64,000 nt of DNA from Vermamoeba vermiformis (lineage: Eukaryota), in assembly GCA_045837725.1 (NCBI GenBank), contig JBEWZL010000235.1:62001-126000 (forward strand), written 5' to 3'. The notes below the pieces were generated by a model. That model worked only from the letters and a program-made list of their open reading frames with translations. It searched no databases and was not told the origin of the DNA. Positions 984 to 48,197 of this stretch are shown here, in pieces; position 1 is the stretch's first letter, and each line of letters starts with the position of its first letter. The position numbers and the translations under genes were made by a program.

Positions 984-1292
984 ATGTTCGGTATTAAGAA
1001 AGCTAGCGTCCAAGACATGCATAACAAGCATGAACACGTTATTGAAAAAATCCAGTCCCTCCGCCAAGTTATATCCGCTCATAAAATGGGTTCAGATAAC
1101 GCAGAACTCTCTCAGATGAAATTAGAAAACGAAAAGTTGAAAGAGATCAACTCCAAAATTAGCGCCCGCTTGGAGCTTCTCGAGAAAGAAGCCTCGAAGG
1201 GCCTTTTTGCAAAAGATATCCCCGTTTCGGCCAAACGTTCAAGCGCCGAAATCACTAGCACCGATGAGCTGAATCCTCAAACGCTCCTGTGA
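984..1292 (+). CDS. Coiled-coil ORF of unknown function, possibly the first exon of a degenerate longer gene
   Basis: 102-aa ORF with AAAATG start and heptad-like composition; a GTAAGC donor follows shortly after the stop in another frame. Confidence 0.3.
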   Translation: MFGIKKASVQDMHNKHEHVIEKIQSLRQVISAHKMGSDNAELSQMKLENEKLKEINSKISARLELLEKEASKGLFAKDIPVSAKRSSAEITSTDELNPQTLL

Positions 1293-7908: not shown

Positions 7909-8279
7909 GTTGTACTTTGTCTTATTTCAAAATAATGTAGCATTTAAATTTAGCCCAATCAATAGCAGTTAAGTGCATCCACGGCAGTACTTGTTTAATC
8001 GAATTCGAAGCCAAATATTTCTAGGGACAGTAGATTCACTTGCTAAATGTGTTTAGTTTGACCATATTATAACGGTTATTTTTGACAGCTTGTCACGTAG
8101 GTAAAAAACCAAACGAAAATATGTTGATGAAATAAAATCGAACGTCAACGTTTGCTTAAATATTAATTTTTACAAAGATGGAGATCAAAGGTAACGGCAA
8201 AGAAGAAGCTCGCGTTCTACTTAAAGAGAAGTTGCGCGTTTACGATGCCAAAACAGAGAAGTGGACGAGTGGTACCCTT

Positions 8280-10798: not shown

Positions 10799-13271
10799 CC
10801 CTTTGGGCTAAATCTGACGGTACTGTGAAGTGTGAGGTAAGTATTATTGGTTTATTCAATATTAAAAAGCTGAATTTCAACACCAATTTTAAATCCAAAA
10901 AAAATTCTTTAATTCAAATAATTCGCTGTTTAGGGAAAAGAAATCATCGTTGGCCCTTTTGTAACTACGACTCGTCCGAAATTTGGCAACTTTGATTTTG
11001 TTTTCGTGATTAACACCGAGATCGAGACGAAAACTAAAACTGGACCTCGATTTGCTTGTCAAACACTAGCAGTAAGTTTGATTTTTATTTTTTTTATCTT
11101 TTTTGACTAAGTCCGAATTCGATAGAGTTGCGAACGTTGGATTTCGCTCCTGAACCTGCTTGCGTTACAAAAGAAGATGAAGCTAAAGCATCTGCACCCG
11201 CTCACTGAAGTGGACGCAAAAAAGGGACTAAAAGTTAATTGTAATATTTGCAAAGGATTAGCTACTCAACGTAAGTTCGGAGCGGCCCATCCACTTTTTT
11301 GCGTGCTAATCGATCACCTTCAGATTTTGCATGCGAGTTTTGCAATTACTATGAGTGTAGAGAATGTAACAAACAATTGAAAGAAAAATTGGAAGATTTT
11401 GTAACGAGTATTCACCATCCACATCCACTCATGCGACTCAACTCTGCTCGAGGCATGTGGATCAGCTCTGAATACAAAGGAACATATCAAGTAAGTCCAT
11501 TAATAGTCACAAAATCTCGTTTTATCTCGTTGAGTTTTGAGATCCGATCAAAGTTCGAGTACTGACATTTGAGACCAGTGTGACCGATGTGATGCAGTCT
11601 CAAACACGACAGTCTACCACTGTGTCGAGTGCGGCGACTACGATCTGTGTCCAAAGTGCACGTACGAACTGCCACAAGGACAGATGTCTGGACGCACGGA
11701 AACTATCGAGGCTCGAACACCAGCTGAACTTTGTTTGAACGAACAGTTCTTGGCACCAGTGCTCAAGACTGAGGGCAACAAGTACTCGCTAGTCAATGCA
11801 CATGATCACAAGTGTCCTGAGAAGATGAGCATGATCACGACCAAGTGTTTCAACCTCAACGAGATTGACAGTGAAGTGCATCCAAGTGCGTACATGGAAG
11901 TGACTTTCACGGAAATTGACAAGAAAGGCATTGTTGGTGTGGGCATTGGCAATCAGATCTTTGGTCAAAACAACTTCTTGGGTCATCAGCAGAACAGTTT
12001 TGGAGTGTTCAACAATGGCACGGTAAGCTGTCGCATTTTGAACTCCTATTGCTCAGCGCATTCATTTTGACAATGTTATCATCGTCCACAGATCTGCATG
12101 AACAATACGAGCAATCAACAGTCATTCCCAAGCATTGCATTCGTTGCAGGTGACACGATTGGCATTGGAGTGATGAAAGACTCGTTCAATCAGCGCACTG
12201 TGTTCTTCACCAAAAATGGCAAGAAGATCGGAATCTTCGAGTGGCGTGTGCACACAGGCATGGATTGCTTCCCAGGAGTGTCGTTCTCAAAGGACTCTGG
12301 TGTGGCGTTTTCAGTGAACATGAGTGGTCCGTTCAAGTGCGATCTGAAGCAAGTTGCAGAGCCACGCACTGACAAAGACATGCTATCTACAATGCCTGTC
12401 GAGATCATCGAGATGATTGGCGCCATGACCGTCACTTCAGATAGACGCGCGTTACAACTTCGCGAGGTATGTCAAAGTCACGAGGAAATTTCAATTGTGG
12501 AATCATACTTAAAACTTACATTTGCAGATAAACAAAGTATTCGCCGCTGTAATGCAAGGCAATGCGGTGTGGCGCTCTTTGTTCTTGCAGAAATGGTCCA
12601 ATCAGAACAAGAACTTGAAGGTCAAGTCGTGGCAACAGCTCTATCGCAAGAGAAATACGGCGATGAAGACAGCCATCGACGCTCATCCTATTGGTACGTT
12701 CAATGGCTCTGTTGGATCGGCGTGAAATTTCTAATAATTTTTATTGCAGAGAACTGTGACATGGAGTTCGAGTGTCCCATACTTTGGGAACGATTGGAAG
12801 GCAAAGGCGTGCAAAAACAAGGCGAGCGATATTGCGATAAATGCAAAAAGACCGTTTACGAAGGTAATTTGATACATAAAATAAGTCAATACCCAAAAAT
12901 TAACGTTATTTTTCAGTGCAAGATGAAGCCACAATGAATTTGTACACCGAGATGGGCCGTTGTGTTTCACTTTTTGAGCCACGTGGAATTGATATTAACA
13001 TTGAACGAGATGATTATAGATTCGAAAAGCGAGGCAAAAGAGCTCCGCCCAAGAGAAGCGGTTTTGTTGATAATAATCCGTTCAATTAACAGTGTAAAGT
13101 CGATGTAAAAGTATTGTTTGTTCTTACGGAGTTTTTAATGCATTGTGAAGATTACTGCCGCCGCGATCATTTCAATTCTTTTTAGAGAAGGATTTTTTAG
13201 AAACTGCCTGAAATTTCAAAACACATGACAGCGAGGTAAAAACTGGGCAACTTCAACAACAAGAAGAACAA

Positions 13272-13869: not shown

Positions 13870-15650
13870 CTATCTAAACTATAATATTGACTTTCACTTG
13901 TTTTAGCATCGCATTGTAAAATTTGGATCTGCTCCATCCATAAAAAAGAATTTTTCTTTTTAAATTCTAGAACGTACCGTTAAAATAGGCTTTATTATGC
14001 AGTTTTGAATCGCTTGGGTGGATTAATAGTACCATACTCATCTGTGCCGTAGTTCTCAACTTCTTCGATGGATCTCTTGGATGTCATACCAAGAAGAGAG
14101 CTATGGTTGACTATTATTTGACCACTGAGTCCATTACCATTACGACTGCTATTCGAAAATGAACTTATCATTGCGCCCTAGTGCCTTGTGTTACAACACA
14201 TATGAATAATGATTATTGACGTACCGGTGCCGTGAGACTATGTTCAATGAGGACAGGTGTGGCCTTGAATTCTTTTTGTCGCTGCTGTTCAATGAACGGC
14301 TGAAGAGTCTCGAGTGTGTCACGTGACATTTCGGGCGCGTCACTTTTGATCGTTTTCAACGTCTCTTCAACACCGTTCAAGGCACGACCAACGATATCAA
14401 GTTTTTTACGAATCATAGGCCTTAATAGGATTAAATTACTATTATTTCGCGCGTTGAATTGTAGCGTACCACATGACATCATCGACCGTGCCAGGTGCCA
14501 CCAAGTAATAAATATTGACGTCACGTTGTTGGCCTATTCTGTGGACCCGGTCTTCAGCTTGAATGAGCATCTAAAGCGATAGTTAGATATGCTGTATCGA
14601 GTACTAGCCGTGACTTACACCGGGGGTCCAATAGAGCTCTGCAAACACAACGACATTTGATTTTGTCAGCGTGATACCAGCCCCTGCAGCAGTGATACTA
14701 AGCACCGCTACACGCACTTGAGGATTGTTTTGAAACATTTTCACGCGATTGTGTCGTTGATCGAGTGTTGTATTGCCGTCAATACGAATGAATTGGACTC
14801 CCTAAAAACGTCAGATCCGGATCCAAATGAAAAATTGTTCGTACCTTGGCTTGAAGCGCTTGAGAAATAGCGTCCAAGAGCTGCAAATGATGTGCAAAGA
14901 CGAGAAATTTGTCTTGAACTTCAAGTAATTTCGTGACATAGTTGACCACACCAGGGATTTTTACGAGTGAAGTGGCCCTGTAGTTCTCCATCAAATTGTC
15001 TTTGTTCTTGAACACTTTTGAACTCATCCACGCTAACACAGCCTCTTCGGCCGCAGTCAAACCTTCTTCGTCCTCGATCTGGATCTCGTCTTCTGCATTC
15101 TCGTTCATTTTCACAGAATTCATTTGTCCGCTGGGCAGTTGTACGGAGATATTAACTTTGTGTCTGTGCTTCGCTGGCAGTTCATTCAACACATCTCGCT
15201 TCAATCGCCGAATCATTAGTGACCTTGACAACAGCAAATGAAGTTCGCGCAAGTGACACGAGCCTTTGAAATTTTCATCAAAATAGCCCTAGTGAAAAAA
15301 GAATTAATATTTTTAGTTATTATTGAGGATTATTAGAGCGTACTTGACTATCGACGCAATAACGCAGTCCAAACACTAGAATTTTTTGGCCGGTAAATCT
15401 CAAGTGTGACAAATCATCACATGTCCCGTAGTATCTACATGTGACAATTTTGTCACCCCGCGACAACGTGACCCGCTGATGTCTGGTTGAGCTAGTACGT
15501 TGGCCAAGCAGCCGCTACGGTACATGAGCATTAATTTTAATAAACAAGAGTTTGTTTAATATGTTTTATTATCCCAATTACAAATTGGATAGCATGTCAA
15601 ATTGAGAGTCCGTATTGCCGACGCATGATGATTTACACCGTCAAGCATGT

Positions 15651-16751
15651 CTACTCATTTGATTCCGCTTCCTCATTAGAAGAGTTTGCCTATGCAAATG
15701 GTTATTAAAATAAGTTACTGAGGATGTACGTTCTTACCAGAGAATCTTCGGCTTGGATAAGTCTTCTTTTTTTTGTTGGCGGTTCATGTTCCTGTTTGAA
15801 TACATGAGTTATTGTAGTAGTAGATTGAAAAAACCTACCCCGTGTTGCTCTTCATCTTCGTTGGAGGCATTGTCTAATTTGTCTTTAATTGTTTTGCGAA
15901 CCTGCCCATCCAATTACAAACTATTGACGACATAAGGTTACAACTTACAATCATGGCAGCAAGCTCTTTGTCTGACTCGGAAGGGTTCTTTTTGATCCAT
16001 TTTCCAATTTCCACTATTCTATCTACATGGAATTCTAAGTCTTCAGGGTCAACTTGCGAGTTGTCTTTGAAGTAGTCTTGTACGGCAGGAATGATCCGGC
16101 GAACAAAGGATCTATACAAGGTACAGCGAACATATTCTTTAGCCTAAATAGAGGCGTCACTATTTTGCTAACGTGAATGAATTAGTACTCACTTTAGCAA
16201 GAGCGACTTTGAAAAATTGTTCGTTGTCTGGGCTTTTAGAGTCTAGCGCTAATTCAACTTCTATAATTTCCTTAATTTGAGGAGATTTGAGTTGCTTATT
16301 GGTCTTCCAATGTCGTTGAAGAGCATTTTTGATTCGTTTCTAAATTTAGCTGTTAGACGGCAAAAGGATTTAGCCATACTAACCCAGTCATCTTCGCTAA
16401 CAACGGAGTTTGCTAGCACCTTGGACACTGCAGACTTTAGTTGAGAGTATTGCTCTACTTGCAACGTGCTGTGCTTTTTCAGTTCTTTAATATCAGATTG
16501 AAGCGCGCGAACAATTTTGGTAATTGGCTCCAACATAGTAGTAATTGTTTTGAGAGTAACCTGCCAGTTAATAGTTACCAATTGTTTGCACTAAACTTCA
16601 AAAGGGATACCTGATTACTGCTAGCCAAGTTATCTTCCTTGTCATCCGCGAAAAGGACTTCATCAAATGAAGCCAATTTACTCCAATTTGTGTTGGTATT
16701 GGAAATTGATGAAATTTTGTTTGTGTTTAAACTGCTACTGTTGCGTTTCAT
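15651..16751 (-). CDS. CACTA-borne multi-exon orphan protein with a coiled-coil (about 300 aa)
   Basis: ORFs 16575-16811, 16261-16581 and 15874-16119 are linked by plausible GT-AG introns; no recognisable motif. Confidence 0.5.
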
Positions 16752-16813
16752 TGAATGATAGGATGTAACTGGACAAAAACAGTCGTTCATTAAGTTGTAG
16801 AATTTTATCAATT

Positions 16814-19800
16814 TTATTTACGAAGAACAGTTAAGTCATGGGTGGAGTGAGCATTGATTCCGTCACAATGTATGCAAAATATCACTTCGCAAACATTACA
16901 TTGAAGAGCATAGTGAGAGTACATTCTTTCACAAGCAGGGTTTGCGCAAATACCGCTGCTTGGCAGGGCTTTGGTAATCTTGATGTTTGGTCTATTAGTA
17001 TTGCGCGTTGTAATGTCTCGCATCGTCTCAGTTAAACAATACGCAATGCAGTAGTTGACTTCGTCATTGCGGTTATCCCTGTACTGCTGGATCCTGTAAC
17101 GATGGGTGAAGAAAATGTCTTCAAATGAATACACGGCACTATAAATAATGTATTAATCGTAGGTGTTGCTCAAAAATAATACTTACTTCTTTTTGGTAAG
17201 CCAGAAATTGGCGTACTGAAAAAGGTATGACATGTTGATTACGTCCCAACATAAGAATAGCAGCTTTGATTTCGGGCCGGCAAATATCACAAAAGAATGT
17301 TCGGTAGTGCTTAGAAATATCTCTCCTGGCGCAAAGTGCGTATTCTTAAAACCCAGTCGTCGGACTGCATCGAGAGTTTTGTCTGCATTTTCATAAGCAC
17401 GAAGAGTATTTTCAGGTAAAAGACATACCATTTAGCTTATCGAACTGTTGTTGGTCATTAAAGTATGCAATAGTTGCACCTGCAGAGTCGCTAATATTTA
17501 GAACAAGTCGTGGATGAAAGGCTGCAGACTGTACCGTAGTCAGTAAAACTTTGATAGCATATTTAGCACGTACCTTCTCGAATAAGTGGTACTCATTAGG
17601 TTTTATCGATAGGCGATTAAACAGAAAAGGCATCGCTGTAGGAGTAGTTTGAAGAAAATTCTGTTGCGAACGCAACTCCGCAGGCAAAAATATATTGAAG
17701 GCATCTAGTGGTAGAGACAAAATTTTTGCAGTAGAACAAGGTTGCATCTCAGTTTTGAACATGCATGGCAGCAGTGCATTTCGGAATCTACTTATGTTAA
17801 TTGCCGTTCATAATTTCAAGTTCGAAAGCTTACTTTTGCACCGCACTCTGAATAGCGGTAAAATGCTGCCCAGGAGTAAGCACGCATGGCTCACCAAAAG
17901 ATAATTCGTTGAACAGGTCTTCGGTATAATGTTGCGGTTTAGCCATCAAATCCCGTTCCGTCTCTGAACGTTGGACATCAATTGGCAGTTTTGGCTGATT
18001 GGAAGTATAAACATAATGGTGTTTCCAATAACGGTAGCAGAATCCATCAATTGCATTGCAGGAAGCGTTGGGCAGATTGATGGAGACCTTGCGCAGGGCC
18101 ATTTCAACTGCTAACTGCGTGTACTCGCCGGAGGCGACGTGAATCACGCGTTTGATGTTTAACTTCTTCAGTAAATACGCAATGAATTGCGCAATATCAT
18201 GGTACAAAGTTTTTTCCGTCTGTATATTTAATATCAATTTTGCGTGTAAATGTTGATAAGTAACTTACCGTGGCTTCAAAGAAATTAAGTCCTGCAATCA
18301 AACTTTGATCCAGATTAAATGAGTAAATTGTGCTGCGTTGTCCATTGACTGTAAATTGTTCGGTGGCAAAAGAGCCCGAAATAAGACGTGGGGCATCGTA
18401 CAAAACTTTGAGATAATTAGTAAAGTACCATATTTAATTGCACGATTACCTAATAATGGAATATCTCCGTTCAATTTACTGGTTATGTCGGGCATTGAAA
18501 TATGCGGATTTTTAAGCAGGTCAACAAAGACCAGGAATGTGCCGGATTGCAGGGTGTTGGAGAAGTTGTTCGCGTTGACTGAAAAGTTCCAAAACGACAC
18601 ATAATTGTCAAAGATAGGCATTAGGCAATCCTGGTACGCGTTGATGTCCATTCCATTGGCGGTTAACTTCTTGGAGTAACGCATCCAAGACCTTTCGATT
18701 GCATTTTGCGGCACAAACATCAACTTCTCATCGAGTTGTGATGGTTCTAATTGCATTTTTCCAGAATCTTGAGACTGGGGACTGCCTTGCTGCAGAGTGT
18801 CATCTGGGACGCACTTCGTCAGATGCGACGACAATGAATTATCTCCACCTGCTGGGGAGATTTCATTTGTATCTGGAGCACAAGCCTGTTCTGAATCTCC
18901 AGAGGACAGTTGCTGGGCTTTCTTATTCACTAGGACTAATGAGCGCGATGTTGCCGTTTTTTTGTTTGAATCCCTGGCCGACTTCTCCGCATACTCCGTT
19001 CGTCGCTTCTTTGCCGGTGGCTTTTCATCATCATCCTCAACCTCGATATAGTTGGCAAACTGCGAATCCTTTGTAACTCCAAAATTGACATCATTGGAAA
19101 GAGTGGCCGGCGTTGCAACATCGTACGATCTTTTTTGTAGTTGCACTTTCAGGTTCCTAATTGGCATTAATAATGCAAGCTGGTACCCGATGTGCACGTA
19201 CCTTATATCACTTCTCAGGGCATCTGCAATGAACTCTGCTTTGCCCGATATCTGATCTGCCGGTTTTCCCTCGGTCAAGTTTTGCATTAGTCGAAGGCGG
19301 TTAGCGACATAAGCTTCTGCCTGCTTGGCTTTGTCATCGGTGAGCTTGGTAAAGTGCTCGCAGCAGAATCTTGGACTGAATAGCACGTGCACGTGCGGGG
19401 ATATTAAACGCTCGAGGTGTTTCAGATCGCGCTTGGTGTTGTCCGTGAAATGCGCCAGCCATAAGGTAACTAACTTTCTGTAATGCTCTGTCGTGCACAT
19501 TAGATAAGTGGTAGCATTGTTAAATGATTTACCTAGGCAAATTACAGGCCCGTGCTGCGACATAAGTTTGTTATGAGCGCTCGCAGTAGTCTTTGCATTA
19601 TGAACGTCGGCACTCCTAAAGTACGCTGTAAGACACCATACAAGCACGAGTATATTACTTACGGTGGCAAGAACTCGCAGCAGAACTCTGCCAGACCGGT
19701 AAATGAGAACGACTCGGTATGGTCATTCGCCAAAGCACAAGCAGCTGCAGCCTGCAAGTTGTTAATAGCAATTTAAAACAATTTATATTTACCTGTCGGA

Positions 19801-20304
19801 GTAATTGTTTCGCCTTGTCGTATGGATCTTCGGTCGTAACGATAATAGCGGTCCAACTCTGGATGCCGAGTAATTTAGCTGCCGCATGCCTCTTGTAACC
19901 GTCAACAATATAATATTTTGCTGCTTTTTCCAAACGGTGTTGTTGCAGCAATGCCCCTTTCTGCTCGTCCGTAGGTCTACCATACAATTTATAAAATTGA
20001 TTAAAAAAACAATTATTTACGTACTCCCATAATAGCAAAACCGAATGTGGAAGAATACCCTTTTTCAGAGAGTCGACTAATTTGTTAACACTTTCATCCC
20101 CTAATTGTTTGACCTGAAACAGAGGATCGTCGCCGACGTCGCGTAACATTACCGTGCATTGAACAGTATTCATTCGCATTTGTCTATAAAAAAATTGTAA
20201 AAAAATTACCGCATATATATGTATAAACAAACGCTAGCAACTTACCGAAAATATTCGGGGATTGCTTCGTTGGCAACTTTGTTGTCCTTCTTTTTTTTGC
20301 TCAT
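16814..20304 (-). CDS. CACTA-borne protein: ParB/Srx-like N-terminal domain, degenerate JmjC-like region, C-terminal Cys/His Zn finger
   Basis: QVKQLGDESVNKLVDSLKKG and YYIVDGYKRHAAAKLLG (ParB-like); LPAELRSQQNFL...PRLVLNISDSAGATIAYFND...HFAPGEIFL...LFLCWDV (JmjC-like spacing); CANPAC..CNVC..FCIHC..H..H. Confidence 0.55.
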
Positions 20305-20528
20305 TGTAAACTTTGATGTTGTATTGTTGATTATTGATGTATATCTTAATTAATGAAGACAAGCAAAGCCGAGAAGTGTCGGTAGAAAATTGGATGAAAT
20401 TTCCAGTTAAGTCTTCTTCGGCGAAGACGACTTAACTGGACCCGTACCCAAATTTTTTTTAAGTTGAAAACTTACATTAAACCACTTGTTATTGTTGTTA
20501 TATTATAAGAGAATACTACAAAATACAG

Positions 20529-21930
20529 ATGGAAACAAAAAATATGTTTGCACGGATTATTGAAGCGCAATACGTAAAAGGTGAGTTCGTATCTACTTTT
20601 TATTTATCTTTCTTATATTATGTTGACATATGTAAATATTTTAATGCGTAGTAATTTGTAAAAATAATTTAATTGCGCTTCGTTATTTATTTTTTGTTCG
20701 ATCAGCAACGCAGAACGGTGCTAATGAAACGGAGATGTCCCGTTTATTCATGCAAGCAGCGAAGAATATACAAAGCACTGATACTAATAGTACACGGTTT
20801 ACAAGTATGCAATTATATTAATTGGATCCTCGAATCTAATTTATATTCCTCAGGAAACGATGTAATTCGTATTAAAAATTTCGAGTGGCGTGCGGACCAA
20901 TTTTTACGCTTGAAGGAGAATTTCTGGCTCGACGATATAATAGTGAATACAATAGCCAAGTACGTAGCACTCCATTTTTCATTTTATTACGGCTCCCGCG
21001 AGCTCAGTTCGACACGGATCGATTTTCACGGAGGGCTTTGCAGGTTCCTTTACTTTAATTGTACTAATCAGCCACCTAAGGTTATTTGTCGATAACACGG
21101 ACGGCCAAGATCTGGCAATTGACTCCATTTTCACCGAGCAACAGCAATCGCGGAAGGAGATTGATATTAGCAAGTATCGCTTCGTTTACGTGCCATTGTT
21201 TGACCGAGCAAAACGACATTTCCAGTTGGTTATTATCGACGTAAAGAAAAGCAGCGCAGTGTTTCTGGATCCGAACCCTATTATTAAAGGTAAGCCGAAT
21301 CAACGCAATAGTAGCCGATGCTGATAAACTTCAGGAACGAGAACGAGCACTGCGGCGATAAAGAAATCAATTGGTACATACCTCCCCGAGCTAAAACGGC
21401 TAAAAAAGTTTTCCGTTATCCCTCCGGGTGCAATGCAGCAAAACGCAATTGACTGCGGGTTGTTAGTCCTCTCATATATAAGTGAGCATTCGACCAGCTC
21501 AGCTCCAACATATTCTGAGCAACTCTCACGGCAACAGTTGATTGATTTGATCTTTAAATACCTCGACTCCGTAAGCGCACAACCATTTTCGTTATATCAA
21601 GTTAATTTATTGTGATTTACATCAGGATCAACGACACAAAATTACACGCATGTTTGAACAATATAGCGCATCGAATAGTAAATTAATATTAGGAGTTAGC
21701 AGCGAGCAGGAGATTCACGCACTACAATTAACCGAGGGTATGTTTGACTTCGTAAATAATTATGTATATTTATAATTAATTTGTAGATTTCTTGCAATCT
21801 TACATAAACAAATTAGCGCAAATTGCACCACTCCAAATTCCCGACGACGTCTCTTCGGACCTTGTCAAGACAGTTGCCTATTATCATACGAAATACTTGT
21901 ATAATTATGCTTACCCTTTCATTTAATAAA
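20529..21930 (+). CDS. Ulp1/SENP (C48) cysteine protease, possibly fused to the downstream AlkB-SRA region
   Basis: Spliced protein contains LRLKENFWLDDIIVN, VPLFDRAKRHFQLVIID, FLDP and QQNAIDCGLLVL, giving the His/Asp/Gln/Cys catalytic set. Confidence 0.8.
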
Positions 21931-23067
21931 GTGGACGCCGAGCAATTCATCCAAAGGCCTTTACTTCCACATGCGCAATTAATTTACAACGCCGCTACAA
22001 CGCTGGAGTCGTTACTTTGGAATTCATTGCTGCAGCCATCGATAGATTGGTGGCTGCCATTTAATAACTTCACAAGTGGAGGCAATGCGATGCCAAAAAT
22101 ATACTGTGCGTTTTCAAAAGACATCTCTATTCGACATTATGTGCCGCACAGCGGTGGATCAAGACCCCTGCTCGCGTACCGTGCGCAATCCGTTGATCAG
22201 TTTCCTCTTGCTGAGACCTTCAATGCAATTTTACAGCGCTATCAATTCACGAAATGGAATTACATTACAGTGGTTATGTACTGCGGCAAAAGGTCGGGTA
22301 TCAGCGCTCACCGGGACCAATTCCAAATTGACGGTTTTGACCAAGCAGAAGAACAGATCGCTTCATTCGTTTTTGGTGACGAACGGTAATTACCATAATC
22401 CAACGCATCTTTTTAACCGTCCAATGTCAGGTATCTGGATCTCATCATTGACGAGCAGCAAGTCTCCATCGCAAATCCTTCGGGTTGCTTGTACCTCATG
22501 GATGGGATTCAAAAGTATTGCAAGCACAAGAAAGATGGAGGTACGGGAGTAAGCATCAGCGTTATTTTCAGACACTTGCTCCCGTATGATGGTGATTCCG
22601 AGGAGGCTGATAGGCTTAATTTGCAAGTTCATCTACCGTGGAGTCAGCTTTCTTCTGCGGCAACTCTTTGGAAGCCAGATCCAAAACTTGAAAACGACGT
22701 AGCCATGAAGACTTTTTGGTTTACAAAAATGCACTTCAACTTCAGTCAACGTCATGCATGCTATCATCAAGCCATATCTAGCAAAGGCAACATTATTCAG
22801 TCGGTGCTAGTTACAAACTGCGGTAACGAAGTAGCACCCGATGCAAGTACCATTATGTTTCAGGTTCCACTGAACTATTCGCGGTTGGCAGCTCTGAAAC
22901 TTACCAAAAAGCTGCAGCGGTCCTTCCGCGTCTACTGCAAGACGGTTTTTTTCCCAGGGCTGCCAAGTAATCTGTATTTGTTCTGCGGAACGTATTTAAT
23001 TACTTCCGCTTATAGAAAAGACGACCACAATCTGTTTTATAAATTTCAACGCATTAATGAGCACTAA
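21931..23067 (+). CDS. AlkB-like 2OG-Fe(II) dioxygenase followed by an SRA/YDG-like domain
   Basis: NYITVVMYCGKRSGISAHRD (HxD), IASFVFGDER, GCLYLMDGIQKYCKH (distal His), SVIFR; then RHACYHQAISSKGNIIQSVLV...AALKLTKKLQRSFRVY...YLFCGTYLI...FYKFQRI (SRA-like pattern). Confidence 0.7.
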
Positions 23068-24848
23068 CTGGTGGTGCCATATTTGTAATAAAGAACTTAA
23101 AAGTGACCAAAACAGACACTTTAGCACAAAAAAGCACCGTCTTAAAGCAGAACAGTTTAATGCCAATCAAACGAAGCCCGACAATGCAGTCGATGATACC
23201 GCAGGTATTTTTTAACGATACATGTCATTTAATATTAATAATTAATTTATTATTTAATTAGATCCCGTTCCCGACCAAACCAAACAGCAACAGACTACCA
23301 CGGAAGAGGGTATGCATATAGATGCTGCCCCTTCTTGTACTATGGCAGCCAATCCTCCACCAAACACTCCCTTGCCAACAAATCCTCCGTCCGTCGAACC
23401 AACCGTCGAACCAACCGTAGAGATACTGCTGCATCTCTTTTGCATGCAGAAGAGCATATCGTTAAAGAATGAAAAGACGTTGTTCAACATCCTGTCGACG
23501 CCAATTTTCCAACGAGGCTTCTTAATTCAATCGTTTGATGCCTTTAGAAAACAATTAGATATCAGTTTACGTGATATTGAGCCAACTATAATCCACTGTA
23601 GCACAAAGCATCCTGGTCAAAAGAATTACAAGCCCCTAGACCCAAACAAGTTAGGCCCAACTTGCGCTATTCCGGTGTACAACCTCCGTCAGCACTTGGA
23701 AAGTTTTCTCAAAGACGAACAACTCAGCAGAAGTGTCATTACAAAGCACAACTGCGATGGAAATACATACTCCGACTTCACTTCCGGCACCTACTTCCGA
23801 GATTTGTGCTTATCGCTACCGGAAGACGTAGTTCCCCTTTGTTGTAAGTAATTTCTCGCTTCATTTCTACAACTTATCTAAACTCTCTTTAGTGGAACTA
23901 TATTGGGATGATACTGGTATATCCAGCAAGAAAAAATGCGGTCCACTCTGGATTGGTATCTCTAACACGAAACCTTCGATAAAGCGCATGCCCCGTTCTC
24001 GAATGCTGACCTCTGTTTTACTGGGCAATGCCGATCCAAGTAGCGTTTTTAGCGAAATCGTCAGTCAACTACAGCATATTAAGCTCTACCCATTTTATTT
24101 TGGTTGTGACCAGGTTAACAAATTGTGCCACGTAACATTATCAATGGTACTAGGTGATGCTCCCGCTAGTAATGGTGCCATAGGTACGTATTATTTTTCT
24201 GCCTACCTGTTATTCAACGCCAACAGGATTGCGAGGACCAACATGTTCATCCCCATGCAGACTTTGTACCGTGTCAAGAAAAGACTTGAAATCAATTCCA
24301 GAGATTGATTTGGATAATTCCTCTATCGATGAACTACCCTGGGCCATTCGAAACCCCGCGGAGTACTTTAACTTGGTAAATGACGTGCAAAACAATTATA
24401 AGCGAGGCGAAATGGAGTTCCAAGAAAACCGTCTCAAAGAGTTAGGAGTTGGCTATTATGCGGTATGTACAAATACTCAACTGTATGCATTTATAACACT
24501 ATACAGAGTCCTCTTTGGCGAATCCCAGGCGTCAATCTTTTCGCTCAATCTCCATACTGTTTATTGCACAACGAATTCCTAGGTAAGATTACCGAATAGT
24601 ACATGCATTTCCTAACGATTGTCCAAGGATTGATCCCGTTTCATATTGATTGTACCCTCGGAGAGTTGTCAGCTGAAGCAATTGATTTGATTGGCCGACG
24701 AATAATGTCTTTCCCAACCATACCTAACTTGCCGTCACTTAACGTGGGACGAACTTTTAACAAGGTGAAAAATATCCCGCTATCAAACTGTAGACTTTAC
24801 ACTTTTAATATAAACTTTACACTTTTAGTCTAAACTTTCTGTTAATAA

Positions 24849-27593
24849 TCAGTGGGTGCCTTCCTTTGCTCGGTATTGTTTTGCAACTTCATAAACAATC
24901 TTTCTAATATACCCTTTGGTATATTTCTCTTCAAATACATCATGTGCCAAGAAGTACAGGAGATTGAAGGATATGCCTTGTTTTTCAGCTTTGACCCTAT
25001 TCAAGCCTGCAATGCACTTTTGAATGTCTTCTTGTGAAACCTTTGGATAATTTGCTTTTCGTGTTGTAAAGTGAAGGAACTTCAAATCTTCCATTGTACT
25101 GAAGGACAATAGTTGTGCAAAGGTTTCTCCAGCATTAAGAGAGTATGGCGTAGTCAGCTTTAAAGATAGCTGCACCATTTCATGTAGTTTAGTTGCCAAT
25201 GGATTATCATTCAGCTTATTTTCCTTGCTGGGAAAATGCAGTGTTAGTAGTGAGTGTAAAGTTGACAGTACGCACCTGTAATTGAACAGAAATTGCAAAT
25301 GTGTAATAATAGCATTTAGTAGCTCGAATGAACAGGAACCACTGTAGAAAGGTGAAGATTTTTTCAGGTACTTATGCCATGCCTCATTTGCATTAGTTCC
25401 CCGTTTAAACTCTTTTAAAGACGCTGAGTTCAAAACTGCTTTTGAGTATCCAGCTTTGTCACTCAAAAAATTGTTTACAGCACCTTCCACTTTGGTGGTA
25501 ATAATTGAAGGGAAGCTTGCTGGCTTTGGAGAGCCACTGAACGAGTAATGTTAGTGTAAAGTGTAAAGTTTGCACTTTAAATTTTACCCTGTTATTGTTT
25601 CGGCCAAATTTTCGATAAACAGCTGCATATCTTTGTCGTTATCTCGGTTTGCTGCCCTATACGTATCCAGCCATAAATGTAACTCGTTATGTAGGAACTC
25701 TGCCGTTGGGGATTGCTTGTTGGCAAGTTGAGCAAATATGGCACTCAAATCCTTTTTACAACTGTAGTAATCTGGTAAAAGAAGTCAAAATGAGACTAAC
25801 AATTTGTTATGTTACCTGGGTGATTGTGTGCTAACACAGTATCTATTCTATGGATCACATGCCACACATCCTGGCAGGTTTTTGGTGGATTGTTTGCATT
25901 TGGAAATGAATTCCAAAAAGCTTTTTCAATCACACTCTTATCTATGTGCATAAATTTAATAGTTAGTAGCTGGCTTTAGTAAATTGTTAGGTACCTTTGC
26001 GGCTATCATCAGTAAAAATGTGAGTTGTCACAGGAGCAGGTAGAAGGTCAAAAATTGCTTTCAACTCAGAGAACATGTAACTTCGTTCATCTGATGGTAC
26101 TAATTTAGTACGTAGCACTTGGCCATGTTCATTTAAGATGGACAGCAAAGAAGCCTTGACTTGTACCTGCAATGGTAAACTGTAAACTTTACAGTAAGAA
26201 AAATTTATTGTCCCTTACCCTTTTGCCATCAGACACAGCAGACAAAGCAGAGGCTATTTTATATGTGTGGTCTATCCGCAGAACAGCTCCAGTAGATTTT
26301 ACCAAATGTGATGTGTAGTTGTTGAAAAACTGTTGTTGCATGCGAAACTTATACAGATACAGGGCTTCCAATGTTGAAGAAGATATTACATAACTATCTT
26401 CAACAGATTGTAGAACTTTAGGAATATCATCCTCAACGAATACATGTGTGAACAGTGCCTGAACAACCTCATTATAAAAAAGAATGTAAAGTGTATAGTT
26501 TACACTTACCATTCTAAGTTTATGCGTTAAGTTTGCAACCCAACCAGTAAATATTGCTCGGGATAGAGCTGAAAAGTTGAAACAATGGTCTGGGATTGTA
26601 TTGAATATGTACTCAAGGAAGTGGGTTGTCACCACAGTTCTATCAAACACTACAATTTGAGGGGTAACTTCATAGTCCTGCAGTTCCAACTGTAGTAAAG
26701 AGAATCTACAATCATGTATCTGGCAATAATAGCGGTGATATTGAAGGAGGAATGGTGTTGAAACATCATAGCAGCGGTGTCGTAAATTATGGCCGTTCAA
26801 TGAAATTTTGCACTTCTCATCCTACAATAAGTTAGTCAAAATGACAATAAAAAATGATACACGGTACCTGTTGGTGCTTGTTGCAGTACTGAGGAATGTA
26901 CGAAAGCATATTCACTTTTTGCTTAGCTTGCCAAAGTTGAAGGTGTTCTACTGGCATTACTGATTCAATTGATGAAGCAAGATCATCCTCTCGTTGAGTA
27001 TTAAAGACCGGTGGCTCATGGTCATCAATTAACAGCTGAGAAAGGCTTGAAATAAGAGGCTCCATGGGGTCAGTATCTGCAGAATTGGATTAGTGTAAAG
27101 TGTAAAGTGTAAAGTATAAAGTGTGCCACACGGTAAACTTTCCAATGGGCGAGACCAATTCCCGCGCTTTTTAACCGTTACCTTTTGCTTTTTCTTCTTT
27201 CATTAGTTGTGCCTTCGATGTCTTTGAGCTCTCTGGTTTACTTATTGGGGCAATACGAGCCTTTGTTTGTTTTTGTGTGTGTGGTAACCGTTCTTTGTCC
27301 GTTTTCAAAGTTGTGGCTGTTTTAATTTTGAGCACATCTGTTAAAAAATTAGAAAAGTGTGGGAAAATATATTAAAATAATTGACCTGCACTATGCATCA
27401 TAGCTTGTTGATGCTGCTTCATCTCCTTTTTAGATCTCTTCGTTATGCCACAGATGGCGTTTTTTTTGTAATTGAAAAGCTGGCAAGTGTAATAAACCTT
27501 GTGGTTACCAGCCTTTCCAAAAGTAATTTTTTGGTGACAGGTGTAATCTTTACTGTCACTATCAAGTTGCACCAGTGTAAACTTGTTCGACAT
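24849..27593 (-). CDS. Mutator-like DDE transposase with N-terminal Cys/His finger (multi-exon)
   Basis: LRIDHTYKIA, SLLSILNEHGQV, HIFTDD, RGTNANEAWHKYLK; N-terminal YTCQ..AICG..HQQAMMH. Confidence 0.75.
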
Positions 27594-27636
27594 CTTGGTC
27601 GCCAAAAAATAAATAACTGCAACGAGTAACGCAACG

Positions 27637-30600
27637 ATGTCACAGTATAATACAAGATCTAGGGGACGTGCCCTAGAAGCAGATAATAATAATAACAACT
27701 CAAAAAAAAGACGTCGCAGCTCAGATTCGAATTCGGCAGAGCACTCAGGTGAAGAAAATGTTACCAAAAAACGTAAAACAGGTAAATATATATGCAAAAT
27801 ATTTTTTTAAACGTCACTGTATATTTTTTATAATTTTCTGTGTCGGATTCCACATTTGCTAATCCGCGCCAGATGGCAACAACAACGGAGCTGAACGTGA
27901 TGCTAATAGCATCAATAAAGAGGACGATCAACGTGACCACGCACCCGGCAAGTCCCGCTCCGAGAAGCAAACAGGTAAGTCTTGTCCGAATTTTTCAAAA
28001 TTCCGCATTTGCTAATCTCGCACCAGATCGCAACAACAAAGCTGAAGAAACCGATGCTGATAGCATCAATAATAAGGACGACCAACGTCCTCACGCGCCC
28101 AGCAAGTCTCGCTCCGAGCAGCGAACAGGTAAGTCTCATCTCGAATGTAAAGAAATTCCAATTTCGCTAATCTCGCACCAGATCGAAACAACAACAGTGC
28201 GGAAGCAGAAGCTAATACTGTTGATAAGGAGAATGACCAGCGTCCTCACGTGCCCAGCAAGTCCCGCTCTGAACAGCTAACAGGTAAGTCTCATCTCGAA
28301 TTAAAGAAATTCCAGTTTCGCTAATCTCGCAACAGATCGAAACAACAAAGCGGAAGAAACCGATGCTGATAGCATCAATAACAAGGACGACCAGCGTCCT
28401 CACGCGCCCAGCAAGTCCCGCTCCGAGCAGCGAACAGGTAAGTCTCATCTCGAATCTAAAGAAATTCCACTTTCGCTAATCCCGCACCAGATCGCAACAA
28501 CAACAGTGCGGAAGCAGATGCTAATAGCGCTGATGTCGAGAATGACCAGCGTCCTCACGCGCCCAGCAAGTCTCACTCCGAGCAGCAAACAGGTAAGTCT
28601 CATCTCGAATCTCCAAATCTAATTTTTTGCTAATCTCGTGTCAGCTAACAACAATAACGGAGCTGAAACTGATGGCAATAGCGCCGATGAGGAGGACGAT
28701 CAGCGTCCTCACGCGCCTGGCAAGTCCCGCTCCGAGCAGCGAACAGGTAAGTCTCATCTCGAATCTAAAGAAATTCCACTTTCGCTAATCTAGCACCAGA
28801 TCGCGACAACAAAGGTGCTGAAACTGATGGTGATAGCGCCGATGAGGAGGACGACCAGCGTCCTCACGTGCCTAGCAATTCCCACCCCAAGCAGCAAAAG
28901 GGTAAGTCTCATCTCAATCTGAAGCGAATTCGCATTCACTAATCCCGCACCAGATCGTAACACCAAAGCTGCTGAAACTGATGGAAATAATGCCGATGAT
29001 GAGGATGATCAACGCGCTCATGCACCTGGCAAGTCCCGCTCTGAGAAGAGTACGGGTAAGTCTCATCTCGAATCTCAACAAATTCCACTTTCGCTAATCC
29101 TGCACCAGATCGCGACAACAAAGGTGCTGCCAAGAAAACAAATAGTCGTAGCAAACGCACAAATGATCGCTCAAACATTTCCGACAAATCCGATGAAGAA
29201 AAAGAGCAAGGTAAGTTACATTTAAAAAAATCTTTGGTGATCTAACTCTGAATTTGCTCTGCAGGTGACTTAAGTGATGCAAATAGCAGCGAGGAGCGCA
29301 GCAATCATACTACCAGCAAGAATAGCAAGCCTCGCAGGGAGACAACAGCAAAGCAGCAGCAGGAAAAGAAAACTAAGCAAACATCCTTGCCCGAAGGTAC
29401 GTACAGCTGTAGACTTTACACTGTAAACTTTACACTGTAAACTTTACACTAACCGCGTTCGTTGGCAGGCTTACGTGACGCCTCAGCCCAACCATATGCT
29501 ACTGCAGATGTTTTAGCAACTGTCCACAAATCGTCTCTTGTTGCTGTTCTGGGGCAGGGTGAAGAGACATGGTATGCTATTGTGAAGGCACCACCAAAAA
29601 AGAAGACCTCTTCTGCACATCTGACTGTTGATTGGTTGGAAGTTGCACGAACAGCTAGCAATGGTGCTCTAATCCTTCAGAATTCCGATGAAAGTCCCTC
29701 AATCATTGAGCTCGGAGCAGTGTTGGATGTCGTGCGTCACACACCCTTAGTGGGTGGAACTTCAATGGTGGACAAGGCAGAACAAAAGAGGCTTGCTGGA
29801 ATTCGTAAGTCAAACAAAATATCATTATTTGCTCTAATTGTGGCAAAGGGGAGAGAATAGTGACCCAAAGTGCAAAAAAGAAGAGCAAAAAGGGAGCGAA
29901 ATCGTAAGTGAAACTGTAAACTTTACACTTTACACTTTACACTTTACACTTACTTATTTTCCAGGGTACCTATAGATGTTGAGGAGGAGATAGAAGAAGG
30001 CAAACCTGAACAAGCCCGTACTCCTGTATCTAAGCATAAAAAGGCACCTTTGTAAGCATATTAATTACACATATATGCACTGTTACTAATTGCACTAGGC
30101 CTGCACCAGCCAAACAACAAAAGCCTGTAGACAGTTACGATGCTGGGGAGGTTGGTGAATCTGGTGAAGAAGAAAATAACCTTGAAGAAACACCAACCGC
30201 CATTTCAGAATTTTCGCATGAATGTGGAGTCACAGTGTCTTCAGTCTATGAAAAAACTGATGCATGTAAGTGCCCCATTACTTGTTTTATTTAATCTAAT
30301 CTCTGTTCAAGGGGAACTCAGGCTTGGCAAGTTCATACTTTGGTTAACAAAAAGAGGAGTGATGCAAAAATCGTTTTTGCTGGGCCCTACTGGGCAAGCC
30401 AGGGGGGCTACCTCCTCTTCCCTGCACCAGTATTTATACTACCGTACGTGCCACTGAAATATGTAAACTGTAAACTTTACACTAACAATTTTACAGTAAC
30501 CCACGCTTTTCTGAATGTCAAGCTACCTACTGCCCAAAAAAAGCGTTCTGTGTTGCTTGGTGCTGGATTACCTGAAGGTGCACATCACAACTACACTTTG

Positions 30601-30771
30601 CTGCAGTACTCTTTCATTACAAAAGAGGTCGAGAATGAGACTCTTGCGTTCAAGACTTTGGCTACAGCTCATAATTGGATGCTTGAAAAGTCACTTGCTT
30701 TGTTTGAGTTCTCAGTGGGCGCAAAGAACAACACAATTTACATTTGTATTCCTCCATTGAGGCCATTTTAA
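27637..30771 (+). CDS. Accessory gene of the nested element with a 34-aa repeat region encoded by tandem exons
   Basis: ATG at 27637, divergent from the transposase ATG; NLS-like KKRRR and KKRK; consistent phase-1 splicing through the repeats; stop lies just inside the right TIR. Confidence 0.65.
27873..29210 (+). repeat. Tandem array of nine ~154-bp units, each a 102-nt exon plus a ~52-nt intron
   Basis: Each unit reads ctaat...cag|ATCGCAACAAC...GAACAG|gtaagtctcatctcgaat; exon starts at about 27873, 28027, 28182, 28336, 28491, 28646, 28800, 28954, 29109. Confidence 0.9.
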
Positions 30772-32224
30772 GTTTGTAACGTTAGAAGTAAAGTTTATTT
30801 TAAAAGTGTAAAGTTTACACTTTAATAGTGGGATATTTTTCACCTCGTTAAAAGTTCGTCCCCTTAACGCTGATATTGTCGAGAGAAAGGGATGGGAAGG
30901 CAAGGCGTACTTGGCATTTTACAAGATGGCACTATTTGTTTTTCGAGGATTGCTATCGCACGATGCAATGCTGTGCTGGTACTTGTGTTGCCCGTTTCTT
31001 ATCTGTTCTAATTACTAGCTTAGGAGAGCGCACTGCAGATTCATTAGGTACCTGTTAAAGCCATCAATAACAGTCAACAAATTAGAAAATTTAATGGCGA
31101 CGTACTGGCAATGGAAGAAATTGTTTATTAAACTATACGGAGATCCGAATGCCGACAATAACAGAGCCAGTAAGAAAGCAATGACCTTTATGAATTTGCA
31201 TGTAGGCGAACATTGGTCTCATTATATCAAACTCTACGGAATGCCCGCGGAATATTCCACGCAGCATTGGGAATCGCTTCATCAGCAAGTAAAGCACAAA
31301 AAAGAAAATCAAATCACAAGTCGCCTTATCTTGATATATCCAAGCAAATTATCGAACAACAAATGCTGCTTTATAAGTATGGAGAGATTGAGGTAAGCAA
31401 ATATATCATTTAGTTATAAAACTAATAATTTGAAGTCCTACATGCCCAACGATCATAAAGTGGAGCGGGTTGTGGTCGGAAAATGTACGTTGATGAACAG
31501 AACAAAACGAAAGTTAAATCCCGAGGTTGAAGCCATTATCATAGAATCATTACTACAATTGAATGTTCCAACCCAGTACACTCAGTACAGATCTCTAATT
31601 TTTGACGACCGCAAAATTGCACTGGGCGACGACTTCAGCTACAAGAAAGGAAACGACAAAGCCTTCGCAAGGATTATAGCAATTATCAACTCTACAGTTT
31701 TGGTTGGATTTGTAGGCCAGAAATGGAGCTCTACAGAGCCAAACATCGACGTGAACGAGACTGAATTCTACAGCTTGGCTGGACTTGAAGAAGAATTTTT
31801 TTTCATCGATGTCAATCTAACAAGAAAAGAGCAGATACTTCAAGTTCAGGAATCCTTCTATCTAGTTAACTTCTACTATTAAACCACCAGTAAAACATTT
31901 TTTAAAAAACATTTATTTTGCTTTTTACGAGCTTTTTCATTTCGTCGAGTTATTCATCTCCTACTTTGGGTAAACCTACCTCACCTACTCTGCATCTGTC
32001 CACCAGGGATATGTTGTCCCACGTAGTTGTAAATCTCTACGGGATCCCACCTCGGGATCCCGCACGTGCTAATGGATCACCCCCGAGATACGCGTTGGAA
32101 CTTTTTCTAGTGAAATGCATTGAACGAGGGAAATAAGCGTGGATTGATTGCATTGATTTGCGTGAACAGTTCAGCTGGTCGACTCAGCACTATGAAACTA
32201 GTTAGCTACGTATTATATTCATAT

Positions 32225-33591
32225 TGTAATGAAAATAGGTGACACTTGTCACGTGATTGTCAGTATTTAGTTACGTTACAAGTCGTCATTATTTGGTGAC
32301 CTTCCTATAATAAATATACACGCTATTTTCCTTACATTTGGTAGCGAAGCAGGCCCTCTCACTGGGTGGGAGGTGAGATCGAGTCGGATTGAGTGGATCG
32401 CGCGTTTGGAACGCGGATGGAGAAGTCAAGGTTGGTTTTGCCGTCGCTAGAGGAAGTGCGAGCGGCACGACGAGAATTGAAGAAGGAGATTGAGGTATTC
32501 TCTGGCTGGGCTCAGGGAAGTTTGCCGAAGAGTTTGCGAGTGTCGAATCTGAAGTTGGAAGCGGAGAAAATAAAGGAGAAGCTTGCCATAATTCAGAAGA
32601 GCATTAAAACGAGTAAGGAAAATTATAAGAAGAGAATTAAGAAGTATAGAAAAGAGATTCTTGGTGGATGCGAACTTTGGGATCTTGGAAAATTTGTTAA
32701 GAAGTTAGAGAAGACAGAGAGGAAGGTTACCCGCCTATGCGAAGAGGAGACGAAGCTAGGCAAGTTGGGAAGGAGATTCGAGAAGATTCTGGAGCGATTG
32801 GATCGCGCGAATGACGTCATCACTTTTTTATGGTCGGAGAAGTTCATGCTTATCGTTGCGAGTGCTTTAGAAAAAGAGTTTAGTAAGGTAGAAGCCCCTT
32901 TAGAGAAGAGAGAACGCGAGTCAAGTACACTAGAAGAAGTCAAGTCCAATCGAGTTGCGGATGCGCTACAGAACGCGGAGAAAATGAACGGCGAAGAAGA
33001 GCGAAGCAAAGAGAATAATATAATGAGAAAAGATACGTTTATTAGAGAGCCTTTAGTCGATAGTATTGACACGTCAGCAGATGTGACGGAGATTTTGTGG
33101 ACTGAATCTGAGATAACACGTCATCAAGAGATTAGTAGTGCGACCGAGCCGCAGGACTTGAAGTCAGAGACTGCCCCGACACAGAGGAAACAGGACCCGG
33201 GCCTACGGGGGCGGGAGAAATATTTTTAAATATAGAAAAGAGTGCGCGGAGAGATTAGATCCGAGCGAAGATTGGCCCAACGCTTTGAAGAGAAGAGCGG
33301 AGAGAGAAATAGATGATAGAGACAACGTTATTAACTGTAGAGGAGCGAGAGAGGAACGAGAGACGGAGATATGGAAATTTCATGTAAAGTTGAATGGCGA
33401 TAGAAATTACGTACCACTGCAGCCCTTCGATCCTGGTGGAGCTATGTTCAAGCCTTGGTTTACTCTGGGGAGAGGGAAATGTAATGAAAATAGGTGACAC
33501 TTGTCACGTGATTGTCAGTATTTAGTTACGTTACAAGTCGTCATTATTTGGTGACCTTCCTATAATAAATATACACGCTATTTTCCTTACA
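32225..33591 (+). mobile_element. Short non-autonomous LTR retroelement (TRIM-like) in a helicase intron
   Basis: Identical 112-bp TG...CA LTRs (32225-32336, 33480-33591); PBS TGGTAGCGAAGC right after the 5' LTR; PPT GGGGAGAGGGAAA before the 3' LTR; TSD ATAT. Confidence 0.93.
32393..33229 (+). CDS. Coiled-coil ORF inside the LTR element (gag-like or accessory)
   Basis: Intronless 278-codon ORF (first ATG near 32417), K/E/R-rich and purine-biased, between the PBS and PPT. Confidence 0.55.
   Translation: MDRAFGTRMEKSRLVLPSLEEVRAARRELKKEIEVFSGWAQGSLPKSLRVSNLKLEAEKIKEKLAIIQKSIKTSKENYKKRIKKYRKEILGGCELWDLGKFVKKLEKTERKVTRLCEEETKLGKLGRRFEKILERLDRANDVITFLWSEKFMLIVASALEKEFSKVEAPLEKRERESSTLEEVKSNRVADALQNAEKMNGEEERSKENNIMRKDTFIREPLVDSIDTSADVTEILWTESEITRHQEISSATEPQDLKSETAPTQRKQDPGLRGREKYF

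Positions 33592-46364: not shown

Positions 46365-48197
<1,833 letters not shown>

Follow-up and report, generated by a model that had tools for sequence, protein, structure and literature searches.

To our knowledge, transposon enzymes that undo host silencing are known mainly as the TET/JBP dioxygenases of fungal elements and the Ulp1 proteases of plant elements. The plant Ulp1/C48 proteases are encoded by Mutator-like and CACTA elements. According to PMC12730594, diverse fungal DNA transposons (KDZ, EnSpm, Plavaka, hAT, IS3EU, Helitron and others) carry TET/JBP dioxygenases, with which they are believed to evade silencing by methylation; none of the terms AlkB, SRA, protease and peptidase occurs in the main text of that paper, and its supplements may list other cargo. 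We analysed a stretch of 64,000 nucleotides from Vermamoeba vermiformis (contig JBEWZL010000235.1 of assembly GCA_045837725.1, positions 62,001 to 126,000 of the forward strand; called the window here) in which a gene at 20529-23067 on the plus strand appears to join a Ulp1/SENP-type protease, an AlkB-like dioxygenase and an SRA-like domain in one protein, and to be carried by a CACTA-type DNA transposon. The reading that we favour overall, with a probability of about 0.55, is that of an intact three-domain transposon gene whose product acts as an anti-silencing factor. As in the fungal elements, a 2-oxoglutarate (2OG)-type nucleic-acid oxidase would be carried by a cut-and-paste transposon of the CACTA/EnSpm-Plavaka group and presumably counter methylation silencing; unlike in the fungal elements, the oxidase is AlkB-like and is fused to a reader domain of its own and to a Ulp1 protease. 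The plant elements have the C48 protease as cargo in common with this locus, whereas in the present gene it makes up the N-terminal portion of a protein with three domains. Full-text literature searches returned no description of an AlkB-SRA or a Ulp1-AlkB fusion in a transposon.

Read without splicing, the region consists of short frames split by stops, and the breaks between them are bounded by GT...AG pairs lying 45-125 nt apart. Removal of eight GT-AG introns (125, 49, 121, 45, 55, 49, 58 and 45 nt) resulted in a single open frame of 663 codons with no internal stop, composed of nine exons (20529-20580, 20706-20804, 20854-20959, 21081-21289, 21335-21570, 21626-21737, 21787-21898, 21957-22385 and 22431-23067). 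The motifs given in a preliminary description of this DNA were found at their positions in the window, and all of them lie in frames that join into this one open reading frame (ORF). Exon 4 has a second in-frame acceptor (CAG) 9 nt upstream, which would move its start from 21081 to 21072. Exons 3-9 are matched by a counterpart gene on a metagenome contig, L001; exons 1 and 2 were placed by the continuity of the ORF and by splice sites only. The reading frame changes twice by +1. The first change falls at intron 5 (21571-21625, GTAAGC..CAG, 55 nt), the counterpart of which in L001 is also a GT-AG intron (5145-5190, 46 nt) with donor and acceptor at homologous codons. A 25-nt mini-intron at 21601-21625 was considered for this place and dropped, the 55-nt intron being common to the window and L001.

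The second frame change lies between the protease and the AlkB-like part. Here the preliminary description had searched 21870-21931 in vain for a GT donor in the required phase and had accordingly left it undecided whether there are two genes, a 1-nt lesion or a non-canonical splice. That statement was mistaken, and a canonical intron had been missed. Intron 7 (21899-21956, GTATAA..AAG, 58 nt, phase 2), with its GT at 21899-21900 and its AG at 21955-21956, has exactly the phase required to lead from the frame of the Ulp1 domain and linker into the AlkB frame. At the same place L001 has a GT at the homologous codon (5457) and an AG at 5496 or 5508, in the right phase and 40 or 52 nt long. A 1-nt lesion at 21900-21935 could be ruled out, since L001 changes frame there as well. 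Judged from these sequences, one protein of 663 residues, made by way of canonical intron 7, is the simplest reading.

The Ulp1/SENP-type cysteine protease domain (Peptidase_C48) occupies 20877-21570 in exons 3-5. The motifs HFQL (21217-21228), FLDPNP (21262-21279) and QQNAIDCG (21436-21459) are present, as the preliminary description had claimed, and hold in this order the His, the Asp, and the Gln and Cys, which we take to be the catalytic residues and, for the Gln, the oxyanion residue of this family. When the in-frame 45-nt intron was translated along with the exons and its stops were written as X, the stretch 21070-21612 matched positions 66-194 of the 217 in the Pfam profile PF02902 with 28.2 bits, above the gathering cut-off of 20.7 (E 2.1e-6). 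Exon pieces searched singly remained below the cut-off (16.6 and 12.4 bits). L001 keeps the same residues as HFQL, FIDPNP and KQRNAYDCG. No long relative of the C48 part was found among 724 candidates.

The AlkB-like domain, a predicted double-stranded beta-helix (DSBH) dioxygenase, extends over 21961-22584 (residues 2-209 of the model) and is interrupted by intron 8 (22386-22430, 45 nt). An AlphaFold model (AF2) of 21958-23064, built from 17 alignment rows and with X standing for the translated intron, reached a predicted local distance difference test score (pLDDT) of 75.1 and a predicted template modelling score (pTM) of 0.67. The best Foldseek match of the AlkB-like model was human ALKBH2 (E 4.2e-6), and the DSBH proteins among the matches listed all belonged to the AlkB family (ALKBH2, ALKBH3, ALKBH6, FTO, NMAD-1 and AlkB). 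A VIA-align run against 48,161 chains gave a Z score of 9.1 for ALKBH3 (root-mean-square deviation (rmsd) 4.0 Å, 156 residues aligned), followed by ALKBH2 (8.9), FTO (8.7), AlkB (8.3), ALKBH6 (7.9) and ALKBH5 (7.8). The first oxygenase outside the AlkB family scored 6.6. A TET/JBP identity of the oxidase was set aside on this comparison, NgTET1 having reached Z 6.2 as against 8.3-9.1 for AlkB enzymes.

The motifs of the domain are SAHRD (22303-22317, with HRD at 22309-22317), a distal His in KHKK (within 22489-22533) and SISVIFR (22552-22572). We aligned the family with two bacterial AlkB homologues that pass PF13532 (2OG-FeII_Oxy_2) at 136 and 123 bits. In the N-terminal half (MAFFT, six rows) Y74, N101, Y108, H118, D120, I134, A135 and G140 were invariant, and in the C-terminal half (eight rows) M23, G25, Q27, H32, F46 and R47. 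The residues of the putative iron triad HxD...H (H118, D120 and the distal H32) are therefore invariant between the family and the bacterial homologues, in agreement with the HxD (AHRD) and distal His noted earlier, and a stretch of the form LLxMxGxxQxxxxH and the terminal ..FR are common to both. The RxNLTFR of the bacterial homologues aligns with SxSxIFR here. The first position of SISVIFR is truly Ser, as had been remarked from the window, and the last Arg (R47 of ..VIFR), equivalent to the last R of RxNLTFR, is invariant in eight of eight rows. A passage of PMC8508711 names the arginine at the Arg210 position as the feature that sets AlkB enzymes apart, and according to one of PMC3175000, 2OG is bound in the AlkB subfamily by two arginines (RxxxxxR). 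Two positions beyond the distal His the family has a near-invariant Lys that is absent from the bacterial AlkB homologues; this lysine of the HxK motif may stand in for the missing first Arg. In its predicted DSBH fold the domain resembles E. coli AlkB, ALKBH2/ALKBH3 and FTO, and with the bacterial homologues it also shares the core Tyr. The predicted fold and the motif register against AlkB homologues show it as a putative, divergent AlkB-type Fe(II)/2OG dioxygenase that retains HxD...H and the core Tyr as well as the last Arg by which the family is defined.

The C-terminal domain, of the SAD/SRA type with a PUA-like barrel, comprises the last ~127 residues (22684-23064). It was modelled with high confidence both from the last exon (residues 85-210 at pLDDT ~80-96) and within the longer model of 21958-23064 (residues 243-369 at pLDDT ~83-97), and the two models agree. 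VIA-align placed SUVH5 closest (Z 14.5, rmsd 2.2 Å over 118 residues), followed by KRYPTONITE (13.9), TagI (13.6), SUVH6 (13.1), UHRF1/NP95 (12.5) and ScoMcrA (10.4), and the nine best rows were all SRA domains. Foldseek returned 45 matches at E <= 0.001 (best 3q0d_X, E 2.8e-6); those listed were exclusively SRA domains (SUVH5, KRYPTONITE, SUVH6/9, UHRF1/2) or the SRA-like parts of modification-dependent restriction enzymes. The domain is thus alike in predicted fold to the readers SUVH5, KRYPTONITE and UHRF1 (Z 12.5-14.5) and to the SRA-like restriction enzymes TagI, MspJI, LpnPI and ScoMcrA (Z 8.3-13.6). In contrast to these proteins, its partner here is an oxidase and not a methyltransferase, a ubiquitin ligase or a nuclease, and its sequence identity to the structural matches amounts to 7-16 %. 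Conservation within the family falls on FN, RH, one Ser and G-x-Y, which differ from what we take to be the YDG-type SRA signature. A search of 3 + 151 bacterial genomes for PF02182 (SAD_SRA) sequences to be used in a profile comparison found none. On the strength of the models, the C-terminal part is shown as a predicted SRA-like base-reading domain.

Relatives of the gene were few and short. An exhaustive HMMER search with the last exon among 1.84 billion representatives detected nine proteins at E <= 0.001 (seven at <= 1e-10, five at <= 1e-30), all of 141-238 residues, from metagenome and run assemblies, and either nameless or annotated as 'hypothetical protein'. All nine contain the C-terminal domain, and all except the N-truncated P0002 contain the C-terminal half of the AlkB-like domain; their appearance is that of ORFs called from eukaryotic DNA with its introns still in place. 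A search with the AlkB N-terminal half added five short pieces among 97 candidates, and no long relative of this half was found among 801 candidates. At the DNA level a metagenome scan of 165 candidate stretches detected two loci, L001 and L002; L002 is 99.98 % identical to L001, so that only one independent DNA relative is available. A protein scan of viral contigs found relatives in none of nine stretches. L001 (9704 nt) is collinear with 15946-24743 and 30863-31879 of the window over nearly its whole length, with tblastx identities of mostly 30-85 % across the element and 41-61 % in the main segments of the fusion gene, and with nucleotide identities of 67-83 % in the five stretches that blastn could align. 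In L001, too, the frame of the fusion gene is open once GT-AG introns, which lie at corresponding positions, are removed.

The preliminary description had called the gene transposon-encoded, and its surroundings bear this out. The carrier extends from CACTAG at 15374 to the CTAGTG that ends at 32112, with AAA on both flanks (15371-15373 and 32113-32115) as a short flanking duplication. These ends were located only through a search for CACTA/TAGTG; seed and Smith-Waterman searches for terminal inverted repeats gave nothing above shuffles, and the termini of the window element match as an inverted repeat at 16 of 30 bases. In L001 the complete element lies at 121-9584, its termini match at 25 of 30 bases and its flanks share TA. 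Between the two elements the termini are homologous at 19 of 30 bases. Directly adjoining the fusion gene, a zinc-finger ORF and the first part of a transposase gene (23057-24743, plus strand) contain the motifs ELYWDDTG (23895-23918), LGDAPASN (24150-24173) and SSPCRLC (24247-24267). Pfam hmmscan gave no match for the transposase pieces. The L001 orthologue of the transposase fell into Transposase_21/tnp2 and Plavaka clusters of the ESM Atlas (feature score 0.97, structure TM 0.72), the next clusters being RAG1 RNase-H-like. The zinc finger, of the U1/JAZ-like C2H2 type (ORF 23060-23209), matched zf-C2H2_jaz below the cut-off (E 0.0045, 17.6 against 22.6 bits). Its ATG at 23057 overlaps the stop of the fusion gene (23065-23067) in the +1 frame, and an overlap of the same kind occurs in L001 at ~6625-6640. 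With such an overlap there is no space for a separate promoter, and the two frames may well belong to a single transcription unit that uses alternative splicing or reinitiation. On the other side of the fusion gene lies at least one large, conserved and divergently oriented gene of the same element (15946-20233, minus strand; counterpart in L001 at 674-4259, with tblastx matches over 674-4247), without a Pfam family beyond a ParB_N-like piece below the cut-off (19658-20233, E 0.017); the ESM Atlas neighbours of its ORF are nameless and mostly from Mucoromycota (score 0.92, low recognition). The whole carrier is located within an intron of a host gene of the SNF2 type on the minus strand, with Pfam SNF2 pieces at 34437-33622 and 15288-14782. 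The termini, the AAA duplication, the adjoining transposase, probably Tnp2/Plavaka-like, and the same gene order in the L001 element show the gene as putative accessory cargo of a CACTA-type (EnSpm/Plavaka-like) DNA transposon.

The transposase gene of the window copy is interrupted by a second transposon (24744-30862) with 75-nt terminal inverted repeats (24746-24820 and 30788-30862) and TTAACG on both flanks. The rest of the transposase gene follows at 30863-31879 on the plus strand (tblastx to L001 8186-9217). The nested element, 6.1 kb in length, contains many GTAAAGT/ACTTTAC subterminal repeats, four tandem units of 309 nt (27864-29090) and minus-strand ORFs at 24849-25550 and 26189-26821.

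The product of the gene could serve the transposon as an anti-silencing factor in the following way. The SRA-like domain would bind modified DNA, flip the base out and keep the AlkB-like domain on methylated transposon DNA. The AlkB-like domain would then oxidise the methyl group, either of N-methyl marks such as N6-methyladenine (6mA) or of 5-methylcytosine (5mC); oxidation of 5mC in vitro has been reported for ALKBH2, ALKBH3 and AlkB. Stripping SUMO from chromatin-bound silencing factors would be the task of the Ulp1 domain. Of what the preliminary description had proposed, the Ulp1-AlkB-SRA architecture stood, the C48 part by Pfam and the other two parts by predicted fold; a demethylase that is aimed by its own methyl-reader and coupled to deSUMOylation is what we infer from it. 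A bolder version would make the protein a self-aiming, non-TET eraser of methylation, in which an SRA flipper and a SUMO protease work with an AlkB domain whose 2OG site has been rebuilt (Ser-x-Ser and His-x-Lys replacing Arg-x-Asn) and in which a conserved 17-nt switch within intron 7, through intron retention or a +1 frameshift, would govern how much protease-only and how much full-length product is made. We regard this version, taken as a whole, as unlikely.

A number of observations weigh against the anti-silencing reading and its gene model. PF13532 gave no match at E <= 1, neither with exon pieces nor with read-through proteins of the window and L001; a family profile run against PDB sequences returned chance-level rows (E 0.32-1.2), and hhalign with one bacterial AlkB homologue, although in the expected register, gave a probability of 4.6 % (E 0.0089). 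In the model the HxD region and the distal-His loop have pLDDT < 50, and the insert from the intron is also poor. Compared with described AlkB enzymes, the first 2OG-binding Arg is replaced by Ser in the window and in all family rows covering the position, the Asn of RxNxTFR is also Ser in all family rows, and the Asn found in the bacterial homologues two positions ahead of the core Tyr is a Val here; further differences are the family-specific HxK, the fusion to a protease and an SRA-like domain, and the position of the gene in a transposon. Because of the Ser and Val at the usual 2OG contacts, binding of the cofactor may differ or be lost. The SRA-like part, well as it models, has no Pfam match to PF02182 at E <= 1. 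The donor of intron 7 is weak (GTATAA), its acceptor is AAG, and the acceptors proposed for the window and L001 lie two codons apart. Three RNA runs with the same species label gave no reads in any of 30 bins of 17500-26500, which is no test of expression or splicing. The window copy cannot move by itself, because its transposase gene is broken by the nested insertion. Finally, the link between SUMO and silencing is general knowledge and no result of this analysis.

Intron 7 also contains a conserved 17-mer, TTCATTTAATAAAGTGG (21918-21934), which includes TAA TAA in the upstream frame and AATAAA. It is identical in L001 (5476-5492) and is the longest exact match between 15000-34000 of the window and L001, the next collinear one being of 14 nt, in the transposase. 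The 17-mer occurs once in the window and in none of 100 shuffles. The 17-mer keeps a constant distance both to the donor and to a conserved RP in four of four relatives, and there is no length change between donor and acceptor. It seems odd for a plain intron to hold the most conserved nucleotide string of the element, and both of these points count against simple splicing. Scans with a pattern based on the 17-mer yielded 27 genome and 12 viral loci; none of the 39 encodes a relative by tblastn, and we rejected them as chance matches. With its double stop and AATAAA, intron 7 may when retained give a second, Ulp1-only product, and we keep alive a variant in which a regulated retained intron or early polyadenylation leads to a Ulp1-only protein. 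Less likely than this variant is a +1 ribosomal frameshift on ATT-TAA-T.

Such a frameshift is the core of an alternative in which the two parts are joined by recoding and not by splicing. Termination at TTC ATT TAA TAA would yield the Ulp1-only protein, and a fraction of the ribosomes would shift by +1 on ATT-TAA-T into AAT AAA GTG and make the fusion, much as Ty elements set their Gag to Gag-Pol ratios; in a milder form the 58 nt are an often-retained intron that gives the same two products. The 17-mer extends over the shift site and is identical in two elements that are otherwise 67-83 % alike where blastn aligns them. In both, conservation of the upstream frame extends as far as ..FI-stop, and that of the +1 frame begins with ..NKV. 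FNKV and the spacing on both sides of it are kept in four of four relatives, and different codons (AGG and CGT) encode the conserved Arg that immediately precedes the acceptor proposed for the window. Both loci nevertheless have a right-phase GT-AG pair of ordinary length with the donor at a homologous codon, the other +1 frame change of the gene is plainly a conserved canonical intron, and the comparison of DNA has a single independent relative to draw on. An Ile-tRNA on AUU re-pairs poorly with UUU, and the stop-stimulated +1 sites that we know of outside Euplotes use UGA, not UAA. On balance recoding appears doubtful. The same must be said of the view that the dioxygenase is catalytically dead or the gene a silent relic, acting if at all through Ulp1 and DNA binding. 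The replaced 2OG contacts described above would fit a dead enzyme, and the disrupted transposase, the great rarity of the family and the RNA runs without reads, uninformative as these are, would fit a relic. Set against this, no row that covers HxD, the distal His, the core Tyr or the last Arg has lost them, and the substitutions are themselves invariant: SxSxIFR occurs in all family rows and therefore points to constraint rather than decay. The Lys after the distal His, as a possible replacement for the missing Arg, and the intact frame of 663 codons likewise argue against a dead enzyme, and we see little probability in it.

Another possibility is that the AlkB and SRA parts repair or protect transposon DNA or its single-stranded intermediates (1-methyladenine (1mA), 3-methylcytosine (3mC)), or act on RNA, with the SRA barrel serving only as a clamp. 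PUA-like barrels bind many kinds of modified nucleic acid, and RNA is the presumed substrate of the AlkB domains encoded by plant RNA viruses. The closest structures to the AlkB-like domain are the repair enzymes ALKBH2 and ALKBH3, and AlkB enzymes are described in a passage of PMC8508711 as best known for the repair of N-methyl lesions. The best matches of the C-terminal domain, on the other hand, are readers of modified cytosine in dsDNA or modification-dependent restriction enzymes and include no RNA binders, and the fixation of the oxidase to a base-flipping reader and its carriage by a transposon parallel the TET/JBP case. We consider a repair role improbable, if less so than recoding or a dead enzyme. 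Hardly credible is a host gene that merely lies beside the transposase and is no part of the mobile element. A single copy was seen in the window, as would be expected of a host gene, but CACTA termini and a flanking duplication enclose the gene, all genes have the same order and orientation as in the complete L001 element, which stems from another organism or strain, and the block as a whole interrupts an intron of the host SNF2 gene. The anti-silencing reading of an intact three-domain transposon gene is the one that we retain.

Several other features of the window were recorded in the surroundings of the carrier and beyond. The SNF2-type helicase gene (34437-33622 and 15288-13477, minus strand) has an intron that the CACTA element and a small LTR-like element have enlarged to ~18.3 kb. 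The LTR-like element (32225-33591) has perfect direct repeats of 112 nt (32225-32336 and 33480-33591) with TG...CA ends and ATAT on both flanks, and its inner ORF of 278 codons (32393-33226) is without a Pfam match. An inverted repeat of 11326-12869 and 38970-40511 was considered as a pair of transposon ends and rejected, being a duplicated ZZ-SPRY host gene. This inverted duplication of ~1.5 kb (77-98 % complementary), containing a ZZ-finger and SPRY gene, flanks the SNF2 and phosphoglucomutase genes and is a segmental duplication at the level of the host. Near-identical direct repeats (91-98 %) at 48133-48210 and 52530-52607 and at 52286-52461 and 54255-54432 surround tropomyosin-like coiled-coil ORFs (53630-54711, minus strand) and suggest a local duplication. 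A weak Pfam match to Kre9_KNH was found at 7131-7694; like the Mucoromycota neighbours mentioned above, it would at most be a lead towards a fungal origin.

The fusion gene unites a protease, a nucleic-acid demethylase-like enzyme of a different class and a modified-base reader in one predicted protein. Its relatives have so far gone unannotated because the AlkB-like and SRA-like parts are invisible to Pfam. With its iron-site residues kept and two of its 2OG contacts replaced throughout the family, the AlkB-like domain offers a natural test case for the binding of the co-substrate. If the 17-mer is truly a recoding or processing switch, it would be of separate interest. Should the protein have the proposed activity, it would provide a demethylation tool that is compact and finds its own target, and the conflict of transposons with their hosts would gain a new participant. 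If it indeed erases methylation, AlkB enzymes would join TET/JBP, possibly with 6mA in early-diverging fungi as their target, among the weapons of transposons against host methylation.

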